Assembly: GCA_032718475.1 (NCBI GenBank)
Contig: JAUCBJ010000527.1
Coordinates: forward strand, 1 to 64,000
Direction of reading: 5' to 3'
DNA length: 64,000 nt
Source: Nemertoderma westbladi
Taxonomy: Eukaryota; Animalia; Xenacoelomorpha
The notes under the pieces are model-generated. The model saw nothing but the letters and a program-made list of their open reading frames with translations. It had not been told where the DNA came from and did not search any database. The translations under genes and the position numbers were made by a program. Below, piece by piece: positions 2,941 through 54,587 of this stretch. Numbering within the stretch: the stretch's first letter is position 1; each line of letters begins with the position of its first letter.

Positions 2941-4574
2941 CTCCAATAAAAATACAAATTAAAATATTGTCGCCAAAGTTCCATACACTGAAGTGTATCT
3001 GAATTCTGACGTATGTACCTAATGTTTTACAAGTCTGCTTTGAAATATCGTAAAAGTTTACATAATAATCCCCCAATTACAGAAAATTGGCGGGAACATT
3101 TGAAACTCTCATAACTTTAAAGCCGTTTTTCTCAAAACTTTGTTAATATTTGGTCATTAGACTACTAATTTTCAAAACTCAATATCTTTATCGGATTTGA
3201 AATCTGTTTTCAGTGTTCGATTCAGCATAAAAATGTGTATTTGAATCAATAAAAAAACACAAAATTATTTTTTGTAACCGTAGGTCGGATTCTTGATCAA
3301 ACCCCACATTTTTAGATAATTAGTCATTATTATCATATGTAATAAATCACACAAGAATTTGCACCACAGGTTTCTTGGACGTATTTTTAACTTGTATATT
3401 TATTTTTTATACAACAGACGTGTTTCATCAGTACTAATTACATAATTTGTTACATTATTCATTCTTGCTGTATATATTGCATATTATAATGGCGAATTAA
3501 TGCTATTAACTTTTGACGCATTTGCAACTATATATATATATATTTCATGTGTATGATAAAAAGGCATATATGTTACATACATATATCGCATCATTTTACT
3601 ACAATTCAACATTATTTTGGTGATAGCATTAACTAATGTTTCCTTTATTAAATGAGAATAAACTATTTAAAACAAAAATAATATCTAAAAGTATTAGTTA
3701 GTTAGTTTATTTATGATGATCTTAATCTGATGATTGTAATCTGAACACTGTATATTGTATAATTCATAGCCCCATAATAAAAATAAATTGGCAAGATACC
3801 ATCATATCAGTTCATTATTACCAGCATTAATTCAACACAGTGGCGATCCACTTAGACTATTTACTCTATCTAATGGAAACTACCCATTTACAAGCGAGTT
3901 TATCAAAAGTGAAGCAGTTTAGCACAGAAAAAGCTTTCTTCGTGGTGGATTAAGTAATTTTATGTTCATTGGTACTTTGCACTGGTTGAACAAAAAAATA
4001 GTGTGTGACATCTGACTTTAGACCTAAAATACACTGAGAGCGCCACTAAGGCGTAATCGTTACAAGTAGTCAATACGCCCAGATATCCATGATAACGCCC
4101 TTGTTACATTTCCCAAAATCGTTAAAACGCCGTTATACATAACCATTTATGTCGAATTCGCTACGTGTTACATCTATATATATTTCTCTATGTATTATAT
4201 TTTTCAATAAATAAATATACACCACTCAGTCACTTAAAAAATATAGCTACTCTTTTGCAAATTTTCGGGTTTACGCAATCGTTCTTCATGCATTATGTCA
4301 TTTAATCAATTATTATGGTTTTATATTTTTTGCACTAATGTTCTATTTAAATTATACTGTAGTTTCCTAGCAACCTAGCTAGCCTGTATTATAAATATGT
4401 TTAGTTTTGAATATTCTCTGAGACATTTTAGAAAATTTATATATTTTGAATAGCTGTAACAACAAATTAACAACTTTAAATGTTCAATATAGTAAGTATG
4501 GAAAAAATTAGAAACATTGAAACAGTTTCAAGCGCAAAAAATGAAAGTATGTATACGTGAAAATCCATTATTCT

Positions 4575-5111
4575 TGTGACGGGATCCAAGAGGGATCCCG
4601 ATTTATCCGGTTGTGGTAATTTAGTCCATGCGTCCCCGCCGTGTATAAGGATGAAATAAAGTGACTGAGTTCTGAAGTTCGGTGTATAATAGGAGGTTAT
4701 AAGATATAGATATATAGTGAATGTGTACAAGGCGGGATACGGTAACTAAAGTCCCGTGATCCCCTAACTAAACTAATTGGCTGTACCCTACGCTAGCACT
4801 GCTGCACTGTGATAACTGAATCACTGATTAATAGGTTATTGGTTATATTGCACGGTGGCCTTACTGCTACTCAATCGATGCCATTCCCCCCTCTGATTGG
4901 TTAGTACCCTTGTTGGCGCCCCGTGGAGTATTCCCGTTCACTCCACTGTGTTCTCTGGGTTAGGGGTTTGGCCCCTGACCCTCTATTGTGTGCTTCCTTC
5001 CCACTCTTATTGGGATGGCGCGAGTTGGTTAATTGCCCAATCTCGCGGCTCCCAATATTGCTTATCGGCTTACAACTTTATGGGGTGTTGGCGGGATTGA
5101 ATAAGCTAACA
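4575..5111 (-). repeat. 3' LTR (537 bp)
   Basis: Starts tgtgacggg and ends aagctaaca on +; I found only two differences from 18353-18889. Confidence 0.97.
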
Positions 5112-5150
5112 CTCCCCCCCATGCTATCTTCCCGGTAAGAAGATAGCATC
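5112..5150 (-). promoter_or_regulatory. Polypurine tract, partly inside a hairpin
   Basis: Minus strand reads ATGCTATCTTC-TTACCGG-GAAGATAGCAT, then a G run and AG, directly before the LTR TG. Confidence 0.9.
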
Positions 5151-5815
5151 AACCTAAAAGTGCGCTACAATCCCGCTGGATCCCGATCTAGTATCGGGTG
5201 TGGGGTGGAATTCTTTTCTCTTGGAGCCGGCTTTCCAGGCCGCCTCCTATGGGTATGATAACGCTACCCCGTGTGCCTGGCGTCTCATGTCGGGCCGATC
5301 GCGCTCACCTCTTCACACGACTTTTGTTTCCCCAACACTTTCGCCCTATCTCACCTTCACTCTCATCCTAACTCTCTCACATTCGGACCTCCCCGTCCCT
5401 TACTCAGCCTCTTATTCTCCCCCCCCCACACTAGAATTGCGTTCGCACTCTCTCCTCACTTCGCACTCTTATTCCGATTCTCAACCCCACTTTGACTGTT
5501 TTATCTCTCTTGACGAACCTCCCCCCCCTTTCGTGCCGTCGCACTCAAGAAGCGTGAAGTTGTCAGTTGTCTCGTCCATAGTGCCATAGTCAATTGTCCC
5601 CCAGTCCCAGTAGCTAATTGAGAAAGGTTGTATGACTATAGTACTTACTCCAAACGTATGTATTTACTGCTAATCACTACGTACGTACATACAAATTGCA
5701 CTTATATGGTTATTTGCATTAATTAAATTTATACTTAATAGTTCGTACGTTACATGCGGCGCCTTCCAGGCGCACCACTTCCCAGTCTCAGTCTCATTCC
5801 CTCGTCTCCGGGAAC

Positions 5816-6619
5816 TTATCTGTTCCTCCTCACGTCCTCTTCCCTGGCCCGTTTCTTGGTTATCACTGCTCCTCTGGCATCATCCGCTTTCTGCTTCCGG
5901 ACCTTCGCTGCCACTTCCTTGCTGATCCCGGTCGTCGGCTCTTTGGGCGCTGGTGTTATCAAAGCCCGATACCGCTTCGCCGGTGGCCCCTCAGAATGGC
6001 CTGGTTGTCTCCCTCGTGTGGCGTCCCATAGGATCATCTTCATTGCCTTTGGTACGTGTTCCGCCAAGAAATCCCTAAACTCCCTCCGGTTCTCTGGTGT
6101 CCACCTGTCCAGGTACCGTTGCGTGTTCATAACTCCGGCGAACGATGCCGCCGTAGCTACCTCTTGATAGGTAAACGGTAACCTTCGCTTTATGATTTCC
6201 ATGTGGGTCTCCTGGTTTATGAGGAAGAAACCCCACTTGAACTCTTGGGCCTTCATGCGCTGGCGCGTCATGGCCCCGACGTCGGCCCACTCCTCGAACC
6301 TCGTGAACTTCTCTTCGTCGCTCATCCAGTCGCACTCGCGTCCGTAGTGTCCCCGAAAGTGGCACTTTGGACATCGGTTATGCAACCGTGGACACGCCCC
6401 CATCCTGTGACTTGGTTCTCTACAATAGAGACAAAAGGTTCCCCGTTGGAACCGGTATAGGCAGCTGCTTTCCTGATGGGTTTGTCTCCCACAGTAGTCG
6501 CAGCCGAGTACCAATGTCTCGCGTCCCACCTCGTCCTTCGTCCCAAGCGATCTCCGCGGTCTATGGAGTCGCTGGTAGGCAAACTTCTCCACGTTGCTCT
6601 CCCTGTTTACGTCGATCTC
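5816..6619 (-). CDS. C-terminal part of accessory ORF3: three CCHC zinc knuckles and a basic tail
   Basis: CDYCGRQTHQESSC, CLYCREPSHRMGAC and CPKCHFRGHYGREC all fit CX2CX4HX4C; same frame as 6620-8359, separated by one TGA (GGC TGA GAG ATC GAC). Confidence 0.85.
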   Translation of the reverse strand, partial: EIDVNRESNVEKFAYQRLHRPRRSLGTKDEVGRETLVLGCDYCGRQTHQESSCLYRFQRGTFCLYCREPSHRMGACPRLHNRCPKCHFRGHYGRECDWMSDEEKFTRFEEWADVGAMTRQRMKAQEFKWGFFLINQETHMEIIKRRLPFTYQEVATAASFAGVMNTQRYLDRWTPENRREFRDFLAEHVPKAMKMILWDATRGRQPGHSEGPPAKRYRALITPAPKEPTTGISKEVAAKVRKQKADDARGAVITKKRAREEDVRRNR

Positions 6620-8350
6620 TCAGCCCCTCTCGGGCATTGTCTCCCCGAATACTATCCGTGGTGCCGTCCCCGGTTGCTCGCCCAACCTGATGGTGCTCCC
6701 CGCGAAATCCATCGCCGGCCCCTCGTGCACCCAGGTCCGCTTGCCGGATCTGTTCCAGAAGGCCCTCGCCCCACTGGCCGTCACCACCCTCCCGCCAACC
6801 CAGTCCGTGTCCGAGTGGCCTATCCTTTCGATGGGCGGTATCTCTCCGAATTCGTCGTCGTCGTCCTCCTCTTCTGGTAGTGTCTCCAATCCCGGTATCC
6901 CGATGGATCCACTATGTCCCTTCCCGCCTTGGCTCTCGCCCGTAGCTCTCCATCCCTCTAGCTCCCTTAACTTCCTTGGCGGTTGGTCGCCCTCGGCGCC
7001 CGCTGGTATGGGCATCGTCTGCAACCCCGACGTCGACTGTTTCGGCGATCCCACCGTCCATCCCAATTCTCGTCCTAGAGACTCCCCCGAACTCCCTGAC
7101 GAAGTCCAATGAAGCTCGTCTAGACCCGCCTGTTCCTCGAAGCCATAACTCTGTGTCCTGGCCTCCTCTTCCCTCTCCTCTGCTTCTATCCTCTCCCGTC
7201 TGGCGACTTCTTCCAGTCGCTTTGCTTCCCGTCTATCCATCTCTAGCTGCTCCCATCTCTGATACGGTGTATCTGTCTCCCCATCTACCAGATGTCGGCT
7301 GTTGTAGTACACCGACTCGCCCTTCAGCCCCGGGTGGTCTACCAGACCGTCAAAGGCCGTCTTAAAGGCTCTCCTGTAGCTTAGGGGTGATCCCGATAAC
7401 AGAAATGCCCCTGGTTCTCTTTCGATAACTACGGTCATGAATAAGTTAAGTAAACTTATCATCATCCAGTCCTCCTGCAGGATATATCGCTTCTGATATA
7501 CCTTTATCGCTCCTCTGCGAAACTGATATACCTCCTGCTTTCCCGGTCTCGCTCCCCACTTCAGCGAGTTCGCTAGTTCTACTCCGTATTCTTCCCTAAA
7601 CTTCCCCCAATCCATTGGTTTGTGGCATACGAGCCCCAACAATTGGCCCATCGCCACCGCCCCGCATTGGCCTGAGTTCTCGACCACCCCCAATCCATCC
7701 GGTGCCGTCATAGCCATAAAGACTTTCTGCATATCCAGGAGGTTGGTGGCGTCCGGACCGATGATCCTCTCCGCGTCCTCGCGAATCGCCGATCCCACTT
7801 TCGTCGTCGACTTCTCTCTTACTAAGACCTGTACCGATTTCGGCAGTCGGTCTAATTTCGGCCCGTCCTTCTTCCCATACGTCCCTAGGTCGAATAAGAA
7901 GATGTCCCCATTTGGCGCTGCCAAATGCAAGAGTATGGTCCTGGCCGACCCTGCCGTTCCTCGTCTCGAACCCGCTTCGTCTTCCACGGTTCCCTCGTCA
8001 TCTAGGATCATATATCCTCCTCTGTTGACGGACTCTATGAATCTTTTCCAGTCCTTCCTCGGCGATTCCCTCGGATACTTCGGAATCCCGAACTTCGCCT
8101 CGTCCCCTTTCACCACGTAGTGGAAGTGTTGGAAGATCGCGTTGTCCAGCGACGGCGTCCCGTAGGTCCCGACCAACCGCTGTTCGTGCGCCTCCCGGAA
8201 GTGATCCTGCAGCGCTCGTGCCGCGTGACCCCTTTCCAACCTCTCGTAGTATCCTCTCGTCTTCTCCTCCGGGTGTCTTTCGGTGAAATCCACCAATATT
8301 TCTTTTCCTCCCGACTCCGCCTTTCTCTTCCTGATCAGCTTACTCGCCAT
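6620..8350 (-). CDS. Accessory ORF3: DEDDy-type (WRN-exo/RNase D/Mut-7-like) 3'-5' exonuclease domain, coiled coil and acidic linker
   Basis: ExoI-like ILDDEG, then LLHLA, IFLFDL, LPKSVQVLVREKSTTKVGSAIREDAERI (ExoII), NLLDMQ and QKRYILQED (ExoIII-like); first ATG at 8350 (MASKLIRKRK). Confidence 0.8.
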   Translation of the reverse strand: MASKLIRKRKAESGGKEILVDFTERHPEEKTRGYYERLERGHAARALQDHFREAHEQRLVGTYGTPSLDNAIFQHFHYVVKGDEAKFGIPKYPRESPRKDWKRFIESVNRGGYMILDDEGTVEDEAGSRRGTAGSARTILLHLAAPNGDIFLFDLGTYGKKDGPKLDRLPKSVQVLVREKSTTKVGSAIREDAERIIGPDATNLLDMQKVFMAMTAPDGLGVVENSGQCGAVAMGQLLGLVCHKPMDWGKFREEYGVELANSLKWGARPGKQEVYQFRRGAIKVYQKRYILQEDWMMISLLNLFMTVVIEREPGAFLLSGSPLSYRRAFKTAFDGLVDHPGLKGESVYYNSRHLVDGETDTPYQRWEQLEMDRREAKRLEEVARRERIEAEEREEEARTQSYGFEEQAGLDELHWTSSGSSGESLGRELGWTVGSPKQSTSGLQTMPIPAGAEGDQPPRKLRELEGWRATGESQGGKGHSGSIGIPGLETLPEEEDDDDEFGEIPPIERIGHSDTDWVGGRVVTASGARAFWNRSGKRTWVHEGPAMDFAGSTIRLGEQPGTAPRIVFGETMPERG

Positions 8351-8859
8351 TCCGAACACTACACTCGCTCACCTGTAGGGTGGTGCCTTACCAAGGCGCA
8401 ATACAGATGAGTGATGTATTGAGATGTTTCCTACAGTTCGATAATGGCCTACTTTTCTACTTAACTGCGCCTTTCAAGCTTAATTTAACCTAATTAATTT
8501 CGGAGCTAGTAAATCAGCCTAATTTACAATTTCCGTCCGTTACTTTTATTATGTTCTAGAACGACTTTCTTTGTGTTACCACTATTTTCGATTTTTAGCC
8601 CTATTCTATTTATTTATATATTTTGCTTTGATTCTACTGTCCTAGTACTTACTACTGCCTATGGATTTATTCTATTCTCTCTCTGATCCATATTCTGGCC
8701 TACTCAGTGGGCCTATGCAGTACAGCAGTATGCGTCGTGTGGCCACACGATTTATCCAGCTGCACTCATATGCCCCCCTCTCGCTACTAACTCTACTTAC
8801 TGCTATCTAATATCTATATCCTATTTTACCCCTTCTACCTCTTACTCTCTCTTTCTAAC

Positions 8860-9645
8860 TAATGGTACTACGTACCCTCTAACTCTAACTCTAACTAGGT
8901 ACCACGTACCTACTAACTCTAACTCTATCGGTACTACCTACCCTCTAACTCTAACTCTATCTAGGTACTACGTACCTAGTAACTCTCTAACTATCGGTAC
9001 TACGTACCCTCTAACTCTAACTCTAACTAGGTACTACGTACCTACTAACTCTAAGTCTATCGGTACTACCTACCCTCTAACTCTAACTCTAACTAGGCAT
9101 TACGTACCCTCTAACTCTAACTCTAACTAGGTACTACGTACCTACTAACTCTAACTCTATCGGTACTACGTACCTACTAACTCTAACTCTAACTAGGTAC
9201 TACGTACCTACTAACTCTCTAACTATCGGTACTACGTACCCTCTAACTCTAACTAACTATTGGTACTACGTACCTACTAACTCTAACTCTATCGGTACTA
9301 CCTACCCTCTAACTCTAACTCTAACTAGGCATTACGTACCCTCTAACTCTAACTCTAACTAGGTACTACGTACCTACTAACTCTAACTCTATCGGTACTA
9401 CGTACCTACTAACTCTAACTCTAACTAGGTACTACGTACCTACTAACTCTCTAACTATCGGTACTGCGTACCTACTAACTAACTAACTCTAGGTACTACG
9501 TACCTACTAACTAACTAACTCTAGGTACTACGTACCTACTGACTCTCTAACTATAGGTACTACGTACCTACTAACTAACTAACTCTAGATACTACGTACC
9601 TACTAACTAACTAACTCTAGGTACTACGTACCCTCTAACCAACTA
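8860..9645. repeat. Array of ~24 GGTAC-TAC-GTACC hairpin units with 32-34-bp period, separated by (CTCTAA)/(CTAA) spacers
   Basis: Cores counted from ~8864 to ~9620; variants ggtactacctacc and ggcattacgtacc recur as a higher-order repeat. Confidence 0.95.
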
Positions 9646-9760
9646 ACTTTTATTTATTTTTATTTTATTTTATTTTATTTGTGTGGGAAGGGCGTCTCGC
9701 CCTCAATCCCACCCCCCTCAGTCCAAAACTTGGACGACTAAACATCACACTAACTCTAAT

Positions 9761-12700
9761 TTAAGGTGCCCCTTCTAGAAGACAGCATTTACCTACTGCT
9801 CTCCTGTAGGTTTTTCTGTCTTTCGCACCTATCTTTCCACCTATCCGCACTTCTACCGATCGGACTCTTCCGTCCTCGTCGGAGTAGGTGCCTACAACTC
9901 TCGCCAACCGCCATTGGTTGTTGATGATAGTATCATCCGTGACGATTACGAGATCTCCCTCTCTCAACTCCCTGTTTGGCTTCCTCCACTTGCTTCGCTT
10001 ATGGAGCGTGGGTAGGTATTCTTCTACCCACCTCCTCCAATACTCTGCGCTAATTGCTTTAGCTACTTTCCAACTTTGGCGGGAGTGTATATCATCTGGG
10101 TCTACACCCCGCATATCTATGGTCGCTGGCCTTTCCATCAGGAAATGGCTAGGCGTCAACACGTCTAATGACTCAGGGTCATCATTCTCCGGGTATAGCG
10201 GTCTGCTATTAATGATCCCCTCGCACTTCGCAAGTACTGTCCGTAAGACGTCTTCAGTGACCATGTGGGTGTTCATCAGCTTCGTCATTAGACGTTTTGA
10301 ACTGCCCACAAGTCTCTCGACGCATCCTAATGTATGTGGTGCATACGGCGTCCTTCTCTCCCACTTCACTTGTCGTCTCCTCATGGCCGCCCTGACTTCT
10401 TCTCCCTCCAAGATGTCTAAGGCCTCTGCCATCTCACTCTCTGCGCCCACAAAGTTGGTGCCGTTGTCGCTGTATATCACCGCGATCGTCCCACCTTTGC
10501 GGTCCCTAAACCTTTCTAAGGCGTTAATGAATGCTGATGCGGTTGCATCTTGGGCGAGTTCTATCCCTACCGCCCGCGTATTGTTGCATACGAAGATAAT
10601 ACCGTAGCGTTTCTCCGTGTGTCGCATCACCTTGATCTTTATCGGCCCGAACATGTCCACACCGCAATGCGTAAATGGCGGGTCGTGCTGTCTTACCCTA
10701 CTCGCCGGTAGTGGCGCCATCTCCTGTACGGCTCGCTCCTTCTTCGCTCGTCGGCAGGTCTGACACTGTCCCACTACCGCTTTCACCTTCTTCCTTAATT
10801 GTTTGACCCAATAGGTCCTTCTTATCTCTGTGAGGGTTCGGTTGGTGCCCCCATGCAGTATCGATTTGTGGGAGTCCCATATGATCTGGTGGACTATAGG
10901 CGATCCTGTGGGAATGATGATGGGTTTCGGTGGCACGACTATACTGTTGTTATATCCCACCCTAGAATTCATTACTAGAATCCCATCCTCGTTGAGTTGT
11001 GGCGACAGCGTGATCAACTCGCTATCCCGTCGGAGGTGCTGTTGGTTACCGAGGCGTTCCACCTCGTCGCCGTAGTTCTTGCGTTGTTCATAGCGGATCA
11101 CTGCCTTGGCCGCTCCTTCCAGATCTATGGTTATCCTGGTCTTCTTGTCCTTGCCGACTCCCGCAAGGAAATTCCCAAAGGCTCTCCAGTACGCCACTAG
11201 TTTCTTGGTCTTATACCAACTGGAACTGTAGCTGAGGAGTCTATCCGTCGGGTTGTCGCACAGTTCCCTTCCTGGTTGCACGTCCCTAATCTCCCTCACC
11301 ATCTGGGAGTATATCTCTTCTCCCTCCGAATCTCCCTCTTCTCCTTCTGATACTACTTCTGAGCCCGGGTCCACCTTCCTCATCGGCGGCCAGGCCTCTC
11401 TATCGCTCAGAAATTGTGGCCCATGTTGCCACAATACTTCCTTCTTCAGGAAAGTGTGGCGTTCCACGCCCCTCGACAGCAAGTCCGCTGGGTTCTCATC
11501 TGTTGGGCAGTAGTGCCACCTTTCCAGTTCTGTGCTCGCCCTTATTTCGTCCACTCTATTCGCGACGAATATCGGGTATCTCGTCTTTTCGTTGTGTAGC
11601 CAACCAAGCACTACCATGGAGTCCGTCCAGTAGTGTGTCTCCACTATGTTGGGAATTGTATCCACTAGGTAGGCTGTGGCTCTAACTCCTAGTCTCGCTG
11701 CTGTCAATTCTAACTTGGGAACAGATGCTGAATCTGGCGGCGTTGACTTAGCTTTGCTAAAGGCTAGTCTGGGCTTGTGAGGCCCCTCTCGTTGTACTAA
11801 ATAGAGTGCCGCTCCGTATGCCTCTAACGACGCGTCGGAGAACATATGTAGGTCCAGATTCGTCATGTTCCCGTCCGGGAAATACACTCGCGGCATGTTG
11901 TATGTTCCCATCCTCTCCAAGTCTCCTATCCATTTGCTCCACTGTTTCCTGATGTCTTCTGGTACCTCTACGTCCCACTCATCCTTCAACTTATATACTC
12001 TCTTGAGTATCTGTTTCCCCGTGACTAGTAATGGGGATGCTAGGCCTAAGGGATCGTATATTCTTGCTATATATGATACGTAACCCCTCTTCGAATGGGT
12101 GTCTGCGCCCTCCTGGCTCAGCTGATACTTCAGTTCGTCTGTTTTTCTATCCCACACGATTCCCAACGCCTTCTGCTGGGATTCCGTTCTCTTAATCGCC
12201 ATGTCCTGTCCTTTGGCTGTTGTAGGGTTGTCCATGGTCGATTCTGGTTTCTTGTCTTCTATTTCCCTGATAAATTCTTCTGAACTGGATTGGAATTTGG
12301 TCAGGTTGAAGCCGGATCCTTTCAGGATGTCGCGAACCTCGCGCCCTGTTTCCAGTATCTCCTCAACCGTATTTCCAGACTCCATACCGTCGTCTACGTA
12401 GAAGCCGCGTCTGATCATATCGACGGCCCTACTGCTATATCTATCTTCCTTCCCTTTTACCGTGTCTCTCACTGCCATAGTCGTCGTAAATGAGGACGAC
12501 TTGGCCCCCATGTTTTGTACTACCATCTTATATGCCGGTATTATAGGCGGTTCTTCCTCGCCGTTATACCATAAGAAGCGTTGACTATCGCTATCTTCCT
12601 CTGTTACTCGGACTTGGTTGAACATGCCTTCTATGTCACAGGTGAAGGCGTGTTTCCCATTCCGAAACCTAAGTAACACTTCTATGCCCGAATTGTAAAT

Positions 12701-14971
12701 ATTTGGGCCTTCCAACAGGTAATCGTTTAAGCATTTTCCGTCGGTCTTTGCCGATGCATCGACTACCATCCTCAGTTTACCTTTCTTTGGGTCTAATGCT
12801 ACGTGGAGTGGCAGGTAGTATGTCCTGTCAGTGTTCGGTTCGTCGACCGGTAACTCCACGGCCCATCCCTTCTTGACGTACTTCTTGATCGTTTTGTGAA
12901 TGTACTCGTTCTTCTCGGGGCTCCGTTGTAGTGTTTGTTTCAGCTTTCGGAGTCTCGTGAGTACCATCCCTCTGTTATCGGGTAGCGGTATCTTCGGTAG
13001 TTTCCATACCATTCCTATTGTATACCGCCCCTCATCACACCTCATCGATTCCTCCACGCTCTGTAGAGCCTGTTTGTCTTCTACCGAGGTCCCGACCCCG
13101 GTCTCTTTCAGTCCCTCAAAGTCTTGCCTGAGCAGTCTTTTAAGCTGCTCCTCTGCTCCCTCATCACCCATTTCCTGCATTGTTCCCGCGAACATGCATC
13201 CTGATGTCTCCGACATCCTGAATGGTATCTTGCTCTTAATTGGACCACTCAGCGTCCACCCGAATGGCGTTAATATGGCCACCGGGTCGCTCTGCTTGTC
13301 TTCGCCGAAGACCGTTTGCATTCTCTCGTGGGCTGTTGGGCAGTCCATGCCTACTATGATGGATACCTTCCTAACGTCCACGTCTGGGATTGAGAAGTCA
13401 ATGTTGTCCAGGAATTTGTATTGCTCGACCTCGATGTTGGTTGGCCGCCTGGCATTGATGTTAATTGACTCTATTACTTGGATGGGGTCGATGGTTGCCC
13501 CATAATCGCATCCTGGTGCCACTGCTGCAATTGCGCACCGTCCTGTCCTCATCTCTAGGACCTCGTCCTTGCTAGAGATGGTTGTCACCGCCATCCTGCT
13601 TGGCCTCGTTCTCAACCCAATTTCTTCGGCTATCCATTCCTCAACTAGTGTGAAGGCAGCTCCACTATCAACCAGCATTAGTGTTGTTACTGATCGATTG
13701 CCTTCCCCGATCACTCGTACTGGTACTACTCCAAGTAGCACTGTTCCTCTCTTCTTCGCCCCTACTGTGCTCGTTGCCATCGTCTGGCCTCTCCTTTGGC
13801 CAAACATGACCGGCTTCTCTTGGCATTCCCTGGCCTTGTGTCCACTCTTTACACATCGCGAGCAGATTTTATTGCTCGACGCGTAATCTATCTGGTCTTG
13901 CCTCGGTAGCGCCTGCCAGTACCTGCAGTTCATGGTTTTATGAAGCGCATTTGCGTGTAACTGGCATTTGCTCTTTGGGTCGTAGCCCTCTTTATACAAT
14001 GCGTTGCGTATCGCAGTTATGTTTGTACCAAAGTCCCTACTATTCTTATTGACTGGGTTTGATCTACTGGACGTACTGGGGTTATGTTTATTCATGTTGT
14101 TATTGTTCCCCTGTCCGTCCCTTGATGTTGTCTTATCTTCGCCTGTCTGTGGACTTGCAGTCCCCTGCGTCGCTGCATATGGCAATGATTGCCTGAGTCT
14201 CGGTAACGCGTTCGATGTATTGTGCTCTGGTTTGGGCCTGTAATGATCTGTCTTTGGTCCCTTTCCCAGGCTATCTTCACTATAGACTGGGTCCGTTATT
14301 AGTTCAGCCTCGTAATTTAAGAAGTTTGACATTTCTTCTAAACCTGGTTCCGCACCCTTCTTGTCTCGGGTGGAGAAAGCGACCTTCCTCCATTTGTTGC
14401 GCAGCCAGCTCGGTAGTGCCTGCGCTATCGTGGTGATGTTATTGGACGCGTTGAGTTCGTATGGCGCGTCTAGCGTCTTCAGCACGATCAGCGCCTTCTC
14501 GACTTTGTTAGCAAACGTCTTAATGCTAACGGGATTATCCTGTAGGCCACCCGATGTTATGCCTCTCAGCGTCTGCCTGATGATCTTGGCCGGGTGCCCG
14601 TATTCCCTATCCAGTGCCCGCCATGCTGTCGTGAAGCCGCCCTCTATTCCCTGGTATTGCCTCACGATATCGTATGCTGGGCCTCCCGTGTACACTTGTA
14701 GATACTTTAGGCACTCCGCCTGCGTCAAGTTTTTTGTTAGTATTTCGTTACTATACATTCGCCGAAACTGTAAGTATTCTTCCGGCCTGCTCCCATCGAA
14801 TTTGAACGGTTCCACGGGTGGTAATTCGATCCTCGTTTTCAACGCATCGATCAACGTGGCCATCCCCATTGCCTGCGCTTCTAATGGATTCGACGGGTGC
14901 TGTATAGTTTCCCTTGTCTGGTGCGGTTCGTCCGTCCTATTTCTTGATCTTCTCTGACTCGGATATGTCAT
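9761..14971 (-). CDS. BEL/Pao Gag-Pol polyprotein (Gag, Zn knuckles, aspartic protease, RT, RNase H, integrase)
   Basis: FDGSRPEEY Gag; CSRCVKSGHKAREC; LVDSGA; YYLPLH, DIEGMFNQV, FYVDDG; YDPLG; FSDAS, PKLEL, WTDS, NPADLLSR; H..HGG..CQTC, GVDMFGP, SDNGTNF, VERLV; LTPSHFL and W-RW-EYLPTL C-terminus. Confidence 0.97.
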   Translation of the reverse strand: MTYPSQRRSRNRTDEPHQTRETIQHPSNPLEAQAMGMATLIDALKTRIELPPVEPFKFDGSRPEEYLQFRRMYSNEILTKNLTQAECLKYLQVYTGGPAYDIVRQYQGIEGGFTTAWRALDREYGHPAKIIRQTLRGITSGGLQDNPVSIKTFANKVEKALIVLKTLDAPYELNASNNITTIAQALPSWLRNKWRKVAFSTRDKKGAEPGLEEMSNFLNYEAELITDPVYSEDSLGKGPKTDHYRPKPEHNTSNALPRLRQSLPYAATQGTASPQTGEDKTTSRDGQGNNNNMNKHNPSTSSRSNPVNKNSRDFGTNITAIRNALYKEGYDPKSKCQLHANALHKTMNCRYWQALPRQDQIDYASSNKICSRCVKSGHKARECQEKPVMFGQRRGQTMATSTVGAKKRGTVLLGVVPVRVIGEGNRSVTTLMLVDSGAAFTLVEEWIAEEIGLRTRPSRMAVTTISSKDEVLEMRTGRCAIAAVAPGCDYGATIDPIQVIESININARRPTNIEVEQYKFLDNIDFSIPDVDVRKVSIIVGMDCPTAHERMQTVFGEDKQSDPVAILTPFGWTLSGPIKSKIPFRMSETSGCMFAGTMQEMGDEGAEEQLKRLLRQDFEGLKETGVGTSVEDKQALQSVEESMRCDEGRYTIGMVWKLPKIPLPDNRGMVLTRLRKLKQTLQRSPEKNEYIHKTIKKYVKKGWAVELPVDEPNTDRTYYLPLHVALDPKKGKLRMVVDASAKTDGKCLNDYLLEGPNIYNSGIEVLLRFRNGKHAFTCDIEGMFNQVRVTEEDSDSQRFLWYNGEEEPPIIPAYKMVVQNMGAKSSSFTTTMAVRDTVKGKEDRYSSRAVDMIRRGFYVDDGMESGNTVEEILETGREVRDILKGSGFNLTKFQSSSEEFIREIEDKKPESTMDNPTTAKGQDMAIKRTESQQKALGIVWDRKTDELKYQLSQEGADTHSKRGYVSYIARIYDPLGLASPLLVTGKQILKRVYKLKDEWDVEVPEDIRKQWSKWIGDLERMGTYNMPRVYFPDGNMTNLDLHMFSDASLEAYGAALYLVQREGPHKPRLAFSKAKSTPPDSASVPKLELTAARLGVRATAYLVDTIPNIVETHYWTDSMVVLGWLHNEKTRYPIFVANRVDEIRASTELERWHYCPTDENPADLLSRGVERHTFLKKEVLWQHGPQFLSDREAWPPMRKVDPGSEVVSEGEEGDSEGEEIYSQMVREIRDVQPGRELCDNPTDRLLSYSSSWYKTKKLVAYWRAFGNFLAGVGKDKKTRITIDLEGAAKAVIRYEQRKNYGDEVERLGNQQHLRRDSELITLSPQLNEDGILVMNSRVGYNNSIVVPPKPIIIPTGSPIVHQIIWDSHKSILHGGTNRTLTEIRRTYWVKQLRKKVKAVVGQCQTCRRAKKERAVQEMAPLPASRVRQHDPPFTHCGVDMFGPIKIKVMRHTEKRYGIIFVCNNTRAVGIELAQDATASAFINALERFRDRKGGTIAVIYSDNGTNFVGAESEMAEALDILEGEEVRAAMRRRQVKWERRTPYAPHTLGCVERLVGSSKRLMTKLMNTHMVTEDVLRTVLAKCEGIINSRPLYPENDDPESLDVLTPSHFLMERPATIDMRGVDPDDIHSRQSWKVAKAISAEYWRRWVEEYLPTLHKRSKWRKPNRELREGDLVIVTDDTIINNQWRLARVVGTYSDEDGRVRSVEVRIGGKIGAKDRKTYRRAVGKCCLLEGAP

Positions 14972-17900
14972 CGGGGGTAGCGGCCCCCTCCATATGTCTG
15001 TATCACACGACCTGTTTTCATCTAGGGGTCTCGTTGTTCTTGTTCCTGTCGGGGTATATTGTTGATATCGTGATGGGGGAATGTCACCCTGTCCCCCCCC
15101 CCACCGGTATGTCTGGTACCGGGGTTGATGTTAGTATGTTGGGGCCCATACACCTATCCGCAATAATTCCCCCCTCCCCTGGGTATATGTTATGTCCCTG
15201 CATGCTGTAGTCATACTGCTGTGCTGGTACCGGTATAGGCCTATCAGCTTCTGGCCTACTCGCCGGTATGTATTCCGCGACTTCCGGGTTTAATCCCGTT
15301 GTCCGCGCTATCCTATCGCCTACATTGCCTCTCTCAGTATGGCCTACGGTATGTGCAGTAAGACCTACAGTATGCCCTACAGTCTGCATGTGTTGCTCGG
15401 GATCGAAGTTTATTCTTCTCGAATAATCCTCCCCGCGGCTACCGTATTATCGATCGGTAGGTATATTCCGTCGGAAAGTTTCTCTTCGACCCCCCTCTCT
15501 ACTGTTCTCTTCTTCGTACCGGTACATCGCGTACCCCTCCCTCGGCGTGTAATGCATCTCATCGGATCGCATCCCTCCGGGGCGACGGCAATCTCCCGGA
15601 GTCCGACCCCACTGACTCTCCGTTCTCATCTCGACTACCGACGGCTCGCTGTCCGTCCTCGCTCTTCTATCGTTTGCGGCGATACTTCTACTACTCTCTT
15701 CCTCCCTTCTCCTATCAGTGGAATATTCCCGCTCACGAGATCTCTCGTCGACCTCCCGGTTAAACCCCACTGTTCTTCTTTCCTCCTCTGATCGGGCTCG
15801 ACGCTCCGTCTGCCCTCTCGCGACGTCAATCTGTCTTTCTCTGCTCGATCGCACGCCGCTGGGGATACTCGCAATCCCCTATTACTTTCCGTCGCCGGTT
15901 GTTGCGGTTTACCTTGTTCGGCCCTCGCATTATCCGCTGACGGCTGTGGGACACTCTCTGCCCCCCCCCCTCTCGCCGCTAACTCTCTGTTGTGGGGCCC
16001 TCGTAGCCCCCCCCCCCCCCACTCGCTACATCTAACTTCGCTACCTCTCTCCCCGCTATTATATGTCTCTCTAGTCGACACATCAACCCTACCACAGTCG
16101 GGTCTATTCACCCCCGCCTCTCCCTCTGCTATTGCGTGGCCTTCCAGGCCCTCTACTCCCTGCCTACCAACTACGCGGCCTACCAGGCCCTCTGCCCCCT
16201 GTCTACTAACTACGTGGCCTACCAGGCCCTCTGCTCCCTGTCTACTAACTACGTGGCCTACCAGGCCCTCTGCTCCCTGGTTACGTAGGCCCGACGTGTC
16301 TACACTAATAACACCCATATTGGAAACGGAATTAATTTGCTCGCCCAAAACAAAATCGTTTGTATTACTCTGGGCGGCCACGTTATCCGAATTATTTTGT
16401 AAATTCGGATTTAGGTCATTATTTAAATTATTCGAATTATTTTGCGTGATCGCGTTATTTAAATTATTTTGTAGGTTCGAATTTGGATTATTATTTTGAT
16501 TATTTGAATTATTTTGCGTAACTACATCAATATTAGAATTATCTCCTACATTAACACTAGGATTGTTCTGATTTAAATTTAAATTACTACCACTAGGTAA
16601 AGTATTTCCTGCAATAAAGGTTTGATTAGTGTTGTCCCATACGGTATTATCAATATTAACAACGCCTACTGTACCATCATTACTATTACCCCCCCCGCCC
16701 GTACGGTCACACCAGTTTTGGGTCTGTCGTGCGGTCCCTGTCAGTGGGGCATTAATAAATGTATCTACGGCCCTCGGCTCCTCAAAAATACTCGAGCCGG
16801 CCCCGCTTTCAGACACTCCTGCCCGCGCCCGTTCCAAATCGCGCGCGTGTACAGCTGTATACCCTAGGAGTTTCTCTCGCTGTTTCTCTAACTCTATTCG
16901 GCCACTCTCCACTCTTGTTACTTTCTCGCTAGACTCCCGTTCTCTCTGCTCGACCAATTCCATCTCTCTCACAATCCCCTCTCTTCTTCTCGCCTTACGC
17001 TCTTTGCGTTCACTTTCCTCTCTCGCCTCACGCTCCCTGCGTTCACTTTCCTCTCTCGCCTCACGCTCCCTGCGTTCACTTTCCTCTCTCGCCTCACGCT
17101 CCCTGCGTTCCGCCTCGCGTTTCTCGCGTTCCGCTTCGCGTTCCCTCTCTTCCCTCAACTCTATCTCGTCATACTCCCTAAGGTTCCTCGCGGCCCTTTC
17201 GCCCCTTTCCCTTAACTCTTTAATCGACACCGCTTCCCTCTCTAGCATCACTCTCCCCTCCTCTAGCCGTCTACCTACTTCTCTATTAGCTTCCACCGCT
17301 AGATTGAGACGGTGTCTGGCCTCTATCTCTCTCACCCGTCTTTCTTTTACGGAGGATGTAACAGACTTATCGGTTGTAACGGATTCCCTCCGCCTTCCCG
17401 ACCCACTGGCTCTCCCCCGCTTCCCGGAACTTTCTCCGACCGACGAGGCCGAATCCTCGGAGTTAACCTCGGATTCGCCCCCTTCGAGTCCCCTCCAACC
17501 CACCGGTTTTATTCCCCGGGCATCGACTGAGTATGGCCCTATGTACACTGGCCCTACACTAGGTTCCATACCCCCACACTCCCATAGTTCCAATAGTTCC
17601 ACGGCAATCTCATGTGCCCTCGTTTCGGCTAGCTCTCTCTGCTCAAAGTGTATTAGATAACTAAAGTGTTTATCCGACTCACCTAGTCGCTTCCTCAGTC
17701 TCACCTCGTCTACCTTCGCCCCTTTCTTCTTGGCATCGTTTAGTATCCTCCGGGTTGCGATGTAAGCGCGTCGGAGTCGCTCAGAAACCCCGACGTCCTC
17801 GTCGCCGACTTCTCCCCTCTCCCTCCGGGTTCGACGTCGTACCGGCGGCTCCACCGTCGCCGTTCCGGTGGGCCGTCCGTCGCCCTCGGCCTGTAGCTGG

Positions 17901-18247
17901 CCGGCGACATCGGTACCGATCTTTCCTCCGTCTCTTCACGTTCGGCGTCGCACCGTCGGCCCCACCGTCGCCGTTTCGGTGGGCCGCTCGTCGCCCTCGG
18001 CCGGTAGCTGGCCGGCGACATCGGCGCGCCGTTCTCCTTCCCGTGTCGACTCCGCTCTTTCTCCCTCCTTCTCGCTCTCCCTTTCTCTTGGCTCGGCTTC
18101 GAGCTCCAGGCCCCCCTCATCCTCGGCTTCCGGTCCGCCCACTATCGATGGCTCCGGCGTCGCGGGCCTGTATCGTTTGGTCGCGGCCTCGCGGATCGTT
18201 AGGTCTTCGTCCGGGGTCCGCGGTGGTGTCTCGCCCGAATCGCTCAT
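14972..18247 (-). pseudogene. Disrupted ~1100-codon N-terminal extension of Gag (E/R coiled-coil repeats, Asn-rich tract, 14-aa repeats)
   Basis: 17936-18247 and 15635-17854 are one frame split by TGA; 15447-15854 and 15084-15389 are one frame split by TAA; frame changes fall at poly-C tracts (~15961-16020, 15093-15102); the pol frame is open from that last tract to 14971. Confidence 0.75.
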
Positions 18248-18352
18248 CTCTCTTCTGCAGATTTCGGTGGCTAGTGTTTATAGAGTTTGTCTAGGGCGGC
18301 AGCTGGCTTTAGTTACTGAGTTTAGCTGGGGAAGCAGCACCGATTTAGTTAC

Positions 18353-18889
18353 TGTGACGGGATCCAAGAGGGATCCCGATTTATCCGGTTGTGGTAATTT
18401 AGTCCACGCGTCCCCGCCGTGTATAAGGATGAAATAAAGTGACTGAGTTCTGAAGTTCGGTGTATAATAGGAGGTTATAAGATATAGATATATAGTGAAT
18501 GTGTACAAGGCGGGATACGGTAACTAAAGTCCCGTGATCCCCTAACTAAACTAATTGGCTGTACCCTACGCTAGCACTGCTGCACTGTGATAACTGAATC
18601 ACTGATTAATAGGTTATTGGTTATATTGCACGGTGGCCTTACTGCTACTCAATCGATGCCATTCCCCCCTCTGATTGGTTAGTACCCTTGTTGGCGCCCC
18701 GTGGAGTATTCCTGTTCACTCCACTGTGTTCTCTGGGTTAGGGGTTTGGCCCCTGACCCTCTATTGTGTGCTTCCTTCCCACTCTTATTGGGATGGCGCG
18801 AGTTGGTTAATTGCCCAATCTCGCGGCTCCCAATATTGCTTATCGGCTTACAACTTTATGGGGTGTTGGCGGGATTGAATAAGCTAACA
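18353..18889 (-). repeat. 5' LTR (537 bp) with candidate TATA (~18625) and TCAGTT initiator (~18597) on the minus strand
   Basis: Direct repeat of 4575-5111; minus strand reads caatataacc...aatcagtgattcagtt. Confidence 0.95.
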
Positions 18890-20069
18890 ATTCTTGATAA
18901 TCCTAGAAAGTTCTCCAAATGCTCCGAAATATGTAGTGTACTGCTATGTTTGTCATGATAACGAAAGATATATTAGAAAAAAATTTAACATTCCTGGAAC
19001 AAAATTTATCACATATTTTAGATCCATCTATTAAAATTTGATTCCAATATCTGAAATTTCAAGATTTGTCTTTTAAAAAATGATATATATTTTTGGCTCT
19101 ATAGGGACATTGGATATACATATAAGCCTGGTTACTACAGTGGCTGCAATTTAAATTTTTGGGTCAATTATTATCTCGATATATACATTTTGGTGAATTA
19201 TATAGATATTTTGCTGAATTATATAGATATTCTTGTATAAATAATGGCATATTGGCTGCCGCTTATTTTCACAACAATGGCTGCATAAATTCTTGAACTA
19301 ATGTATGTGCTGCATTAGGTATTTCTGTTGTGAGAGAACTAAGATATGAATACTGGAGAAGGGGCCTACAGTAGATGGGTTGTGTATCCTTATTGTAAGT
19401 CCTATCTAAGATTATTTATATCTTGATTTTCCTGGTCGGGTTATCATTTCCGATGTTAATTATAATAATGATTGAGGGACTGTCATTATTTCAAACGATA
19501 AACGATAAAGTCAAAAACGATAATAATAACATAGTACAGTACACCAGCGACCTGAAATTTTTGCTTCTTGGGAATTTCCTCATCTATTTTCCGATGTCCG
19601 TTTTAACGTTTTAAAGAATATTGATTGTTTGCCAATGTTGATCGATCTGCCTAACAATCAATAATCTATATAGAGGCACACCTTCGCCCAATGTAAGATT
19701 TTATTATGGGGTGTTTCTTGTAATGGTGATTTAATTTCGATTTTTATTTTTAATCAGTGTTTTTACGGGAACCTTATAAGAATGCTGACAACATATTTAG
19801 ACTCAGCTTAGTATTTTACATCATAATATCCATACTTATATTACCTCCTATATTTGACAATAATTATTGAAGATAAACTTTAACTTTATTGTAAGCCTAT
19901 GAATAGTATGTATCTACAATACTACTGTATCTTGCTGTACCTAGATTTTTAACGAAGTGTCATTTTGCTGCAAATTTATGAGCCATGCTTTATACTATTA
20001 ACATACAAATAGCTGCAATTTTGAATATTCGAGTTGGCCTATTACTGACCATACAATGCCATGTATATA

Positions 20070-21540: not shown

Positions 21541-21611
21541 CATAAAAAAAATACAAAATACATAATACATAATAATACATAATATCTCTAGAATCAAAAC
21601 CTTTTGAGAAC

Positions 21612-22025
21612 CCGGGCGCACCCGGGCACGTTGTCACACTCACTCTTAGTGGGCCTTTATTAAATCTACCCGGGCGTGGGGTCACGCTCACTCTTTGTGA
21701 GCCTTTATTAAATCTACCCAGGCACGGGGTCACGCTCACTCCCTGTGGGCCTTTATTAAATCTACCCGGGCGCGGGGTCACGTTCACTCTTAGTGGGCCT
21801 TTATTAAATCTACCCGGGCGTGGGGTCACGCACACTCTCTGTGGGCCTTTATTAAATCTACCCGGGCGCGGGGTCACGCTCACTCGTAGTGGGCCTTTAT
21901 TAAATCTACCCGGGCGCGGGGTCACGCTCACTCTTAGTGGGCCTTTATTAAATCTACCCGGGCGCGGGGTCACGCTCACTCTTAGTGGGCCTTTATTAAA
22001 ACTACCCCGGGCGCGGGGTCACACT
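21612..22025. repeat. 48-bp minisatellite, ~8 copies
   Basis: Unit gggcctttattaaatctacccgggcgcggggtcacgctcactcttagt starting at 21651, 21699 ... 21987. Confidence 0.95.
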
Positions 22026-22880
22026 TCGAAGCAGTCATCATCAACATCACTGACTAGTCAAATGTCTAGTAAGAAATTATCCCCCAGTAAACCCATAAAA
22101 ATACGGTTTATAGTACTAAAAAATACCTAATATAAATAAAATTTATAAAACACAAATAAATAACAATATAAATTTATGTATAGATAATTAATTAATATAT
22201 CAGATAATGTCAAAAATCGCAGTCGACCGCATTTGCTTTTCACTCATTCGGCACTTCTAACACTTCACAAAGAATATCCTATCCTATCCATACCCTATCC
22301 TACCTTACTCTATCCCCCTATCTACCCTATCCTATCTTAATCTATCCTACCCTATTATATCATGGCCTACTATATCCACCTAACCTACCCAGCCTATCCT
22401 AACCCTATCCTATATAACCCTATTATAATCTAACTATATCCTTGTCCCATACCTTCCTCTGAAATATCCATCCACCCTCCCTGGTGGGCAGCCGTTCACT
22501 AGCAATGCTACTAGGTTGCCCTCCTTTACCTATATATATATATTATATTTATATATATACTGATATATATTACAATAATTTATATTACAATAATTATGTG
22601 TGCCTTAATTATTATGTATATGTTTATATGGGTAAAAATAAATAAATAAATCAATCATCATCATCAATAACTCTGGGGCGTTTAGGAGGTGGTATAATTC
22701 TCCTTCACTATCAGCATCATCTGAGGAAAAACAAAAATTCAAGTTCCTCCTACAACCTATATCCTTAGGACAGAGTCGCACCTTGCAAGGATGACTGAAC
22801 AAGGGGTGGTAGGGGAAGGCAAGTTTATCATTGAAGGTGATGCTGAAAGTGAAGGAAGATCTACAGAAATCTGCCCCTCA

Positions 22881-26029: not shown

Positions 26030-27365
26030 ATAGTGTATGATTTCATCACAAATTTCTGTATCTGTACACTGTAGGTACAGCCTATTGGCAACAAATGTAT
26101 GGGGTGGGGTGTCTTCCTCATAAGAGTCTGGCGGCACGCAATCGCCACAGTAGCAGTAAGAGGTATAAGAGCCTCAGAAGGAAGGACCTTTCCCTTTGGT
26201 ACCGCACTCTTATCAATTGGATATAATCCAGTTTTTCGGAATAATATTCTCAGGTTTTCCAATGAAGGCTTCTATGAAGAGGAGTTTCAAAAGCGTCGGA
26301 AATGTCGGCTTCTGGACCGTTTTTTTTTGCCGGGATTCATGGTAGAAGTCAATAAGTATCTTATACCAGGTTTTTTTTGGCAGGTCCGTAACATGCAACA
26401 TCTAGAGGCTGCAAAGCGCTCGATGTGTGTGGAGACAGGCACACAGTGTGAACTCCTTCTTCCCTAGCCTTAGCTGTGGTTTGATAAGTGAGATGCAACC
26501 CATGGCCGTCAAAGAAGATAACAATTGCTTTGGTCTTCTTCTCATATTTCAGAAGTATATCTTCGAACCACATTTCAAAAATGAAGTCTCCCATCCAGCC
26601 AGTCCCACTCACGCTATAGCTTGTATTCTCTGGCCCCCCAATAACCCAAGAGTCCATAACTTGATTTCCCTTTCCTTTATACACCACATATGGTGGCATA
26701 TACTCCCCAGATGCACTACCGCAGAAAAGAACAGTATACATGGTCTTACTGTCTTACCCTCACTAGGAACCAAAAACTGTGCATCTTTGCTACCTCGGCG
26801 GTTGAAACACTTTCGAGCTTTCGGATCCAGGGCAAGACCAGATTTCGTCCAGATTGAAGAAACGCCCTGGTCTATCAGCTATATCAAGCTTAACTACAAA
26901 GATCATGTACCATGTGGAAGAAGCCATCGATTAAGCCTTTTGCCCTGGCTACGGTAACATACTCAGGCTTTCTTTCACTAATTCATTGCTTCCATCTAGT
27001 TTTAAAGCTGATCAGCCAGTCGTATCCTGGAGTGATCTCAACAAAGCAAGTTGTTTCTACAGTTTGATCAAGATAAGACGTGACAAAAGTGGCTAGCACA
27101 TTTGGTTCAAGTGGCCAGCCTAGATCTCCTAAGAATTCTAGTGCAGAAACTAAATATTCCTCAATCTCACGACTCAGTTCAGTTGGTCGACCTGCACCAA
27201 AATGATCAGTCCGACCCTTTATTGTAGGACGTTTTTTAGTACCATCCCATTTATTTGAATTCCATTGACTTAGGGTGCTTTTAGGAATGAATACCCGTTT
27301 CTAGTTAAAGTTCTCTTAGACTCATTAGTTCGTCTTTAGATCTTTCGCATGTAATGTCGAGGCAT
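26030..27365 (-). pseudogene. pogo/Tigger-family DDE transposase pseudogene
   Basis: TVLFCGSASGEYMPPYVVYKGK, GWM, FFDGHGLH, PHTSSALQPLDV, FRKTGLYP; degraded N-terminus starting MPRHYMRK at 27365. Confidence 0.9.
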
Positions 27366-41755: not shown

Positions 41756-41999
41756 GCATATATACTGCTGTGGTGCTAGGCTTTATAATGTGAGAATAAA
41801 ATCCCATAGTGCCATAGACGAAAATTCCACCTCTAAATATAACACAACGAACGCTAACACAACGAACTCTGAACAACTCATAAATGATAAAGAATAATGG
41901 TAAAGAACGAAGTTTCATAACTCTTTTTCAATCAAAATTTTTGAATATGATTTCTTTTTGTCACTGAGTACTTGCTGTACCCAATTTCTTTTTCTTACT

Positions 42000-42175
42000 G
42001 GGTGCTATTGACTATTTATTTTTGATGCTGGGTGCTATGGCCGATTTCTTTTTGTTGCTGGGTGCTATGGCTGATTTCTTTTTGTTGCTGGGTGCTATGG
42101 CCGATTTCTATTTGTTGCTGGGTGCTATGGCCGATTTCTTTTTGTTGCTGGGTGCTATGGCCCTGTGGGTGCTAT
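42000..42175. repeat. 30-bp minisatellite, ~5-6 copies
   Basis: Unit gggtgctatggccgatttctttttgttgct. Confidence 0.9.
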
Positions 42176-42358
42176 GTGCTCTTGGGGTTTTATGATGGTG
42201 TCATATACATTGCATTGGGTCTTGAGAGACTGTGCCATTGATTTGGCGTCCCGATTTTGGTCTCTCTCTGACCCCGCCAGATCCTGATAAAGGAAACTAA
42301 CTGTAGGCCTATGGCGTACAGCTGTTTTGCACACTTTGGTCACTTGCGCCCCTGTAAT

Positions 42359-46320: not shown

Positions 46321-46769
46321 ATTGATAGCTGCATTGGTGTAAGTGCCAATCAACTAGTTGGAGTGCTCTGGTGTAATGGCTTTCTACATGGGTGTAACTC
46401 TAGGTAGACGACAGCATTGGCGGGTTCAAGTCTCCCTCACACTCAAGCGTCATGTCTCCCCACACGGGCTTTTTTTTTCGATTAATTGATATAATTTCAA
46501 AACGGCTGAACCAAAACTGGAAAACAATATATGGCAGGATAGTGCAATAATTAGTTAACACATGTTGTGAATTACAATTATTGTAACATACAGTAAAATA
46601 AGGATGCGAATTTTCATTAGTTGTAAAGGGTAAAAATTTACTTTTGAACACAGAAAACGTTTATTGACAATAAAACAAATTCCCATTCTTAAAGAAGAAG
46701 AATGGGAAGTCAGATGGACTAGATAATCTCCCTTACGAAACATTAAAGGGATCAATATCTCTAACACTC

Positions 46770-54578: not shown

Positions 54579-54587
54579 CATCAACAA

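Follow-up and report, generated by a model that had tools for sequence, protein, structure and literature searches.

The 64,000-nucleotide stretch of Nemertoderma westbladi DNA analyzed here (GenBank assembly GCA_032718475.1, contig JAUCBJ010000527.1, positions 1 to 64,000; hereafter, the window) contains a BEL/Pao-type long terminal repeat (LTR) retrotransposon of 14,315 bp on the minus strand (4575..18889), and the third open reading frame (ORF) of that element, ORF3 (5816..8350, minus strand), is the subject of this report. The element has TG...CA termini and is bracketed by a 5-bp target-site duplication (4570-4574 and 18890-18894). Its 5' LTR (18353..18889) and 3' LTR (4575..5111), both on the minus strand and both 537 nt long, differ by only 2 mismatches (99.6% identity), and the element is young and recently inserted. 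Everything between the LTRs, namely ORF1, gag-pol, a spacer, ORF3, a hairpin, and a polypurine tract (PPT), is encoded on the minus strand; ORF3 lies among these other parts and so was mobilized together with them as a single unit. The gag-pol frame (9761..15130, minus strand; 1789 codons, open) has Pfam matches to Peptidase_A17 (E 1.4e-39), DUF5641 (E 3.9e-24), and DUF1759 (E 7.2e-11), which bear out the BEL/Pao host named in a preliminary description of the locus. Protease (DSGA), reverse transcriptase (RT; YVDD), RNase H, and integrase motifs follow in that order, and the frame holds one canonical CCHC knuckle plus one variant. The TG...CA LTRs, the target-site duplication, the PPT, the order of the pol domains, and the Pao-specific Pfam domains are all BEL/Pao hallmarks; the element is assigned to this type by its domains and appears atypical in its priming. 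An integrase query against viral contigs returned no related element.

ORF3 is read in the same sense as pol and lies between gag-pol and the 3' LTR. Its 844 codons are broken by a single in-frame TGA (6620..6622, minus strand; codon 577), much as the preliminary description had it, and at this base composition the stop-free runs of 576 and 267 codons on either side would arise by chance with probabilities of 1e-11 and 8e-6, respectively. Residues 95-313 (7412..8068, minus strand) form the DEDDy-like exonuclease domain. The six motifs on which that label was originally based are all present and in the order given, starting at residues 116 (LDDEG), 140 (LLHLA), 151 (FLFDL), 184 (KVGSAIRED), 204 (LLDMQ), and 286 (QKRYILQED). 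An E/R-rich charged stretch follows at residues 361-402 (7145..7270, minus strand; 55% K/R/D/E); the richness in E and R was correctly noted, and the coiled coil also claimed for it is likely by composition alone. The next 174 residues (403-576; 6623..7144, minus strand) are a G/S/P-rich acidic linker that, by its composition, is likely disordered. Beyond the TGA lie the three CX2CX4HX4C zinc knuckles that had been reported (6332..6502, minus strand; individually 6461-6502, 6392-6433, and 6332-6373), beginning at residues 617, 640, and 660, for which Pfam zf-CCHC_4 gave E 0.011 only, below its cut-off. The C-terminal region (5819..6325, minus strand) comprises an aromatic-rich domain of ~115 residues (676-790) and a basic tail (791-844, 31% K/R). 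Neither the linker nor this domain figured in the preliminary description, nor did the primer site treated below. None of 60 candidates was a homologue of the knuckle and C-terminal region, its ESM Atlas matches scored below 0.9 and were generic knuckle proteins, and a metagenome match to it was rejected as an off-frame chance match. ORF3 is not an env gene, as had been argued: no membrane segment was found along it (the best 19-residue hydropathy mean is 1.3), its N-terminus is basic and polar, and the signal peptide and membrane anchor of env-type proteins are not seen. A CAG/GTGAG junction ~22 nt before the ORF3 start codon (8365-8385) is readable as a splice acceptor or donor, and ORF3 may be made from a spliced message.

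ORF3 in other copies of the element

Other copies were seen as contigs of four out of seven public runs (X1, X3, X5, and X6) aligned to the window, with the ORF3 comparison covering the 3551 bases of 5150-8700 and the LTR and primer comparison covering 18300-18560. The element family is plentiful in three DNA runs, where contigs aligned in their thousands, and more than half of the aligned contigs are <95% alike. At the TGA codon, run X1 has a letter that gives no stop in 19177 of its 19248 depth units, and X3 has one in all 42544; in X6, 93 of 150 depth units were without the stop, the remainder not being resolved. Run X5, only guessed to be RNA, gave nine contigs on ORF3 (none over the stop codon) and none on the LTR stretch. 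The idea that the TGA is a sense codon therefore falls: read-through or recoding was rejected because other copies are open at 6620-6622. In the family, ORF3 is one frame, and the TGA is decay private to this copy. Such decay fits the age of the copy because the LTR divergence predicts ~6.6 private changes in 3551 bases; six near-fixed differences were found among the best 40 of 560 rows.

Variation in ORF3 was scored on the best-supported 40 of 560 variable rows, and because these sites share ancestry, the p-values below overstate significance. Of the 40, 30 lie within ORF3, where third codon positions account for 20 (p 2e-4). With the break codon set aside, 21 of the 29 best-supported differences leave the amino acid unchanged, where a share of 0.22-0.30 would be expected (p 1e-8 to 3e-6), and three of the eight non-synonymous differences are near-fixed, i.e., private to this copy. 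The silent bias spans both the exonuclease and the knuckle halves. These values should not be taken at face value, since only the best-supported rows were sampled and their sites are not independent; the direction is clear, and ORF3 is a real, conserved gene under purifying selection, with the excess of silent over amino acid change that the preliminary description had named as a check on other copies. The highest summed contig depth on 5150-8700 is at the PPT-side end, which is perhaps shared with shorter, non-autonomous relatives, and some contig joints leave out parts of ORF3.

Residues 95-313 and the DEDDy exonucleases

A profile was built from 70 PF01612 domains of bacterial RNase D and Pol I proteins. 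Aligned to it with hhalign, the ORF3 domain scored 25.6 (E 0.002 over 137 columns), whereas 100 shuffles reached at most 20.8 and 45 windows taken from other ORFs at most 18.0; the local alignment ends before motif III. The hmmsearch score of 4.9 bits was reached by none of 200 shuffles. In a MAFFT alignment with 61 of the 70 domains, D117, E119, K184, Y289, and D294 fall in five invariant columns and D192, the ExoII aspartate, in a 90%+ column, so that both the ExoI D-x-E (D117/E119) and the ExoII aspartate are in place. All four acidic columns were matched by one of 150 shuffles and none of 17 natural windows in a control using 31 of the 61 domains. In the ESM Atlas, the neighbors of residues 50-350 are eukaryotic clusters without a name (0.95) and clusters of PF01612 3'-5' exonucleases (0.94). 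PF01612-bearing clusters make up 24 of the 30 matches, the best of them sharing 168 of 256 features and carrying the PF01612 annotation on 34% of its members; shuffled proteins score at least 0.9 in this Atlas 4-10 times per 100. Because the profile score relative to shuffles, the register of the four acids, and the language-model features all point to one family, we judge it very probable that residues 95-313 have a DEDDy fold, of a very diverged RNase D/EXD/WRN type. No subfamily can be named for this DEDDy-like domain. The candidate catalytic residues, all on the minus strand, are D117 (8002), E119 (7996), D192 (7777), Y289 (7486), and E293 or D294 (7474/7471).

Several results speak against this assignment. 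Pfam found no family in the exonuclease region at E values up to 1 or, in a further search, 0.1, and NCBIfam gave none either; the curated Pfam cut-off for PF01612 was not reached, and we consequently write "DEDDy-like" rather than treating the domain as a filed member. The hhalign probability is only 12.8%. Folded from its single sequence, the region gave a pLDDT of 32, and a Foldseek search on that model was uninformative. Motif III is irregular, reading Y289-x4-D294 or Y289-x3-E293 rather than Y-x3-D, and aligns only with a one-residue insert. The total count of conserved columns was discarded as evidence, since the 5 of 14 found were reached by 63 of 150 shuffles.

Searches for relatives of the exonuclease region gave no homologue among 2324 candidates, among 413 shorter candidates, or in metagenome contigs, viral contigs, or PDB sequences, and they returned no rotifer element protein. 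The sole match among 1.84 billion representatives was a spurious repeat protein, a plasmid match at E 4 was put down to chance, and weak matches in three of 301 bacterial genomes included none that was exonuclease-like by eye.

Supplied with the DEDDy alignment, the region folds with a pLDDT of 72 and a pTM of 0.74; this is of course circular and indicates only that the sequence tolerates the fold. The same circularity applies to the matches of that model, which include trypanosome RNase D, Egalitarian, EXD2, Exd1, Nibbler, WRN, diDNase, and Pol I-type domains at VIA-align Z scores of 10.7-12.8 (the best, Z 12.8, has an rmsd of 3.0 over 160 aligned residues). Foldseek ranks Egalitarian 2nd, Exd1 23rd, and E. 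coli RNase D 35th. Like the PF01612 group (RNase D/EXD1/EXD2/WRN/Nibbler/Egalitarian), to whose members it is 9-21% identical, the domain aligns at the ExoI DxE, the ExoII K and D, a W-x-x-RP-like segment, and the Y...D helix; unlike them, it has inserts after ExoI and before ExoIII and an extra residue between Y and D, and no HRDC domain was found. The exonuclease of the preliminary description is thus supported by shuffle-controlled remote homology and by four acids in register, whereas no library matched it and a confident fold was obtained only with the DEDDy alignment.

The primer site and the remainder of the window

The primer-binding position immediately after the 5' LTR (18344..18352, minus strand) does not start with TGG, and no TGG-type tRNA primer site follows the 5' LTR in this copy or in other copies, which share the same layout. 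Instead, its first 9 nt are the exact reverse complement of LTR nt 362-370, the candidate self-primer (18520..18528 in the 5' LTR and 4742-4750 in the 3' LTR, minus strand). A 9-nt complement at this offset arose by chance in 69 of 20000 simulated LTRs and for 22 of 13233 internal 9-mers; the 9-mer of the primer site itself recurs 36 nt downstream. For an element-encoded tRNA-like primer, no tRNA, no Rfam match, and no long complement outside the LTR were found. A primer formed at a splice junction was also considered and rejected, as the best case paired 10 nt at offset 1, involved four different weak donors, and gave no gain over the unspliced 9-mer.

Folding predicts a stem between LTR nt 371-386 and 467-481 around an 80-nt A/U-rich loop (18409..18519, minus strand), and the 9-bp pairing stacks directly on this stem. 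Over five assumed transcript starts, the predicted pairing probability of the 9 nt is 0.76-0.98 at eight of the nine positions and 0.19-0.63 at the ninth. No variant at 5% or more was found in LTR nt 362-370 in three runs. Of the 23 variable LTR positions within the aligned stretch, 19 lie within nt 383-462, so that the loop absorbs most of the differences among copies, and 1 of 61 positions predicted to be paired is variable versus 22 of 115 unpaired (p 7e-4, the sites not being independent); the low variation in paired positions could be due in part to conservation of a promoter or an end signal. By motif scan only, a TATAA (LTR nt 265) and an initiator-like TCAGT (LTR nt 293) stand 30 nt apart (18593..18625, minus strand), and transcription is predicted to start near LTR nt 295; the complement at nt 362-370 would therefore lie ~70 nt inside the RNA and not at its 5' end. 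A further initiator-like motif, TTAGT, occurs at LTR nt 363, so that the Tf1 layout, with the complement at the very start of the transcript, may apply instead.

Upstream of gag-pol lies ORF1 (15635..18247, minus strand), an 871-codon, low-complexity, E/R-rich and N-rich frame without a match in a Pfam search; in this copy it carries one in-frame stop (17936-17938), and gag-pol is not in one frame with it. ORF1 and the stretch before gag-pol (15130-18247) contain 33-, 39-, and 111-nt repeats, followed by short frames that do not join gag-pol, and the region may be an extra gene, a decayed Gag extension, or an intron-containing leader. The spacer between pol and ORF3 (8864..9680, minus strand) consists of a (TAAAA)n run directly after pol (9648-9680), with several AATAAA, and a tandem array (8864-9639) of ~24 units of 32-34 nt, each with a short inverted repeat; it could terminate the gag-pol message and set ORF3 apart as its own unit. 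Past ORF3, a perfect 11-bp hairpin precedes the PPT (together 5112..5149, minus strand; PPT at 5112-5120) and sits within a larger predicted structure (5112-5300).

Elsewhere in the window, a virus-like or Maverick-like block extends over 49782-60649. It includes a 1402-codon ORF (56009-60217) for which Pfam gave only a weak DUF6395 match and whose motifs we take to be those of a protein-primed DNA polymerase B, a dUTPase (55212-55853, E 7e-16), and a short ORF (60218-60649) with a weak TBP match (E 0.016). An exact tandem duplication with 2868-bp spacing (49782-55500), which may be real or an assembly repeat, contains three ORFs of 167, 328, and 189 codons without a known family. Two ORFs resemble those of DNA transposons, at 26361-26753 (DDE_1, E 1e-18) and at 35828-37057 (409 codons, weak DUF7869). 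Tandem arrays occupy 21572-22051 (48-nt units), 41943-42182 (30 nt), and 63237-63966 (73 nt), and LINE-like RT fragments were seen by eye at 20945, 30039, 45470, and 46674-48234.

Possible roles of ORF3

DEDDy ORF3s in LTR elements are already known, as the preliminary description stated: in the available part of Rodriguez et al. 2017 (PMC5408684), they are described for the rotifer elements Juno1/2, Vesta2/5, and Athena/Terminon, and 3'-end processing of element RNA is proposed for them; the parts of PMC6431247 and PMC6338049 available repeat this account. ORF3 of N. westbladi resembles them in being RNase D-like, in occupying the env position without a membrane segment, and in keeping its acidic residues. 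With 844 codons, a charged helix, a long linker, and three CCHC knuckles, it differs from the rotifer ORFs, for which the same part of PMC5408684 reports no coiled-coil domains, notes only a Cys-His-Cys motif, and gives the motif as DEED. Rotifer ORF3 variation is there described as mostly neutral within the genome, as measured on env and GDSL ORFs, unlike the strong silent bias found here. The hosts differ too: the element here is BEL/Pao-type, whereas the Juno and Vesta clades are Ty3/gypsy-type. The element shares with Belpaoviridae/Semotivirus (PMC8742986; genome 4.2-10 kb, 18-nt tRNA primer-binding site) its LTRs, PPT, protease-RT-RNase H-integrase order, and Pao-specific Pfam domains. 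It departs from them in its length of 14.3 kb, in a third gene that is not env-like, in the extra long ORF upstream of gag-pol, and in that the tRNA-primed replication from an 18-nt site that is typical in the ICTV profile was not found.

The primer layout is closest to that of Tf1/Tj1 and Tf1/sushi elements, in which, according to the text available of PMC4600332 and PMC6317226, a site right after the 5' LTR likewise complements the LTR and is flanked by a stem. The Tf1/Tj1 complement is, however, the mRNA 5' end (PMC4600332, in part), whereas here it is 9 nt predicted to lie inside the RNA. Self-priming is given as limited to the Tf1/sushi, Tcn1, and TAR lineages in the portion of PMC6317226 available, and neither that portion nor the corresponding one of PMC4600332 names BEL/Pao or an accessory exonuclease. 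In the accessible parts of PMC3118150, PMC3601003, and PMC13524379, only env-like genes are mentioned for BEL/Pao, and no exonuclease ORF or self-priming was found for BEL/Pao in the literature, with Repbase, subscription journals, and supplements outside the scope; the supplements of PMC3118150 hold BEL/Pao sequences and might include such ORFs unannotated.

The explanation that we tentatively favor is that ORF3 encodes a conserved, likely active DEDDy-type 3'-5' exoribonuclease that is held on the element RNA by its knuckles and trims a 3' tail back to the 9-base primer duplex, which seems to us possible. Transcription would start near LTR nt 295, placing nt 362-370 inside the RNA; if the RNA ended at nt 387-466, in the A/U-rich loop of the 3' LTR, everything past nt 370 would be a single-stranded tail. 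ORF3 protein, expressed from a spliced or separate message, would bind the element RNA through its three zinc knuckles and be packaged together with it; as a single-strand-specific exonuclease it would halt at the 9-nt duplex and leave a flush 3'-OH beside the LTR end, from which reverse transcription could start without a tRNA. RNase D-type enzymes process the 3' ends of structured RNA (section 3.3 of PMC5408684, among the parts available), in line with this proposal, and the non-tRNA, self-complementary primer site gives circumstantial support to the earlier suggestion that the enzyme processes the primer or RNA ends of the element. A number of points count against it. Nuclease and primer site are linked because both occur in one element and family, which is only co-occurrence. 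AATAAA is absent from the sense strand of the LTR, which bears on the placement of the RNA 3' end. Two minor variants inside the primer site, read by hand, both keep G-U pairs, a weak indication that, by our estimate, chance would produce in about 4 cases out of 10 under transition bias. Tf1 self-priming reportedly needs RNase H only, so priming need not use ORF3. Finally, the available text of PMC6317226 gives a 10-base rule for the self-priming complement, of which the 9 nt here fall one short. That the family has abandoned tRNA priming altogether, a dedicated, element-encoded exonuclease-nucleocapsid protein making the primer out of the 3' terminus of the element RNA by a route unlike either tRNA priming or the RNase H of Tf1, we consider rather improbable.

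It is doubtful, if conceivable, that ORF3 is instead an active nuclease directed at host small-RNA silencing, its knuckles binding piRNAs, siRNAs, or their precursors and its DEDDy domain trimming or destroying them, with self-priming proceeding independently through RNase H. The piRNA-pathway proteins Nibbler and Exd1 are among the fold neighbors (of a model that its alignment biases), contigs of the family are plentiful in the three DNA runs, and purifying selection is compatible with any selfish benefit; yet mature piRNAs have 2'-O-methyl 3' ends that block most such enzymes, and rotifer DEDDy elements are still covered by small RNAs, with no clear link to copy number, according to the available part of PMC5408684. 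The fold might also be mainly RNA-binding, as in Egalitarian and Exd1, which would make ORF3 an adaptor that localizes or packages element RNA and supplies the knuckles that Gag is short of. Foldseek placed both proteins above E. coli RNase D despite an alignment made from bacterial RNase D and Pol I, motif III is irregular, and BEL/Pao Gag usually carries three knuckles rather than the one canonical knuckle and one variant found here. We nonetheless regard an adaptor as unlikely, as all four acidic positions are kept, which is unexpected of a long-dead enzyme at such low identity, and in VIA-align Egalitarian and Exd1 do not stand out (Z 11.2-11.4; top match 12.8).

An enzyme that acts on DNA, polishing or proofreading the ends of cDNA while an unusually long genome is reverse-transcribed, in the manner of WRN-, EXD2-, and Pol I-type domains, would suit the length of the element relative to the 4.2-10 kb of its family (PMC8742986) and the presence of Pol I-type domains and EXD2 among the top fold matches. 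The exonuclease-like domain is, however, not fused to RT, the knuckles point to RNA, and copies differ widely with no sign of unusual fidelity, though age confounds this; we hold such a role to be very unlikely. Hardly more probable is that residues 95-313 are not DEDDy at all, the motif order having arisen by chance in an acidic alpha/beta domain of what would still be a real, selected gene. For this speak the lack of a family or homologue in any library searched, the low hhalign probability, the failure of the unbiased fold, and the shuffles that reach 0.9 in the Atlas; the agreement of three separate measures on one family speaks against it.

What is new here is the host superfamily for a DEDDy ORF3, the combination of exonuclease and triple knuckle, and their pairing with non-tRNA priming. 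In the part of PMC5408684 available, the rotifer DEDDy genes, known since 2017, are without a function shown or a sign of selection. ORF3 shows a silent bias and brings its own RNA-binding fingers, and the family that carries it is abundant and was active recently; together these points speak for the gene being needed by the element. The self-complementary primer site provides a specific candidate substrate for its nuclease. If the bolder reading above, with tRNA priming abandoned, is true, trimming the primer would be the first concrete job found for DEDDy ORF3s in LTR elements. Whether such cargo genes mature a primer, destroy small RNAs, or serve purely as RNA adaptors, each outcome would say what they do.

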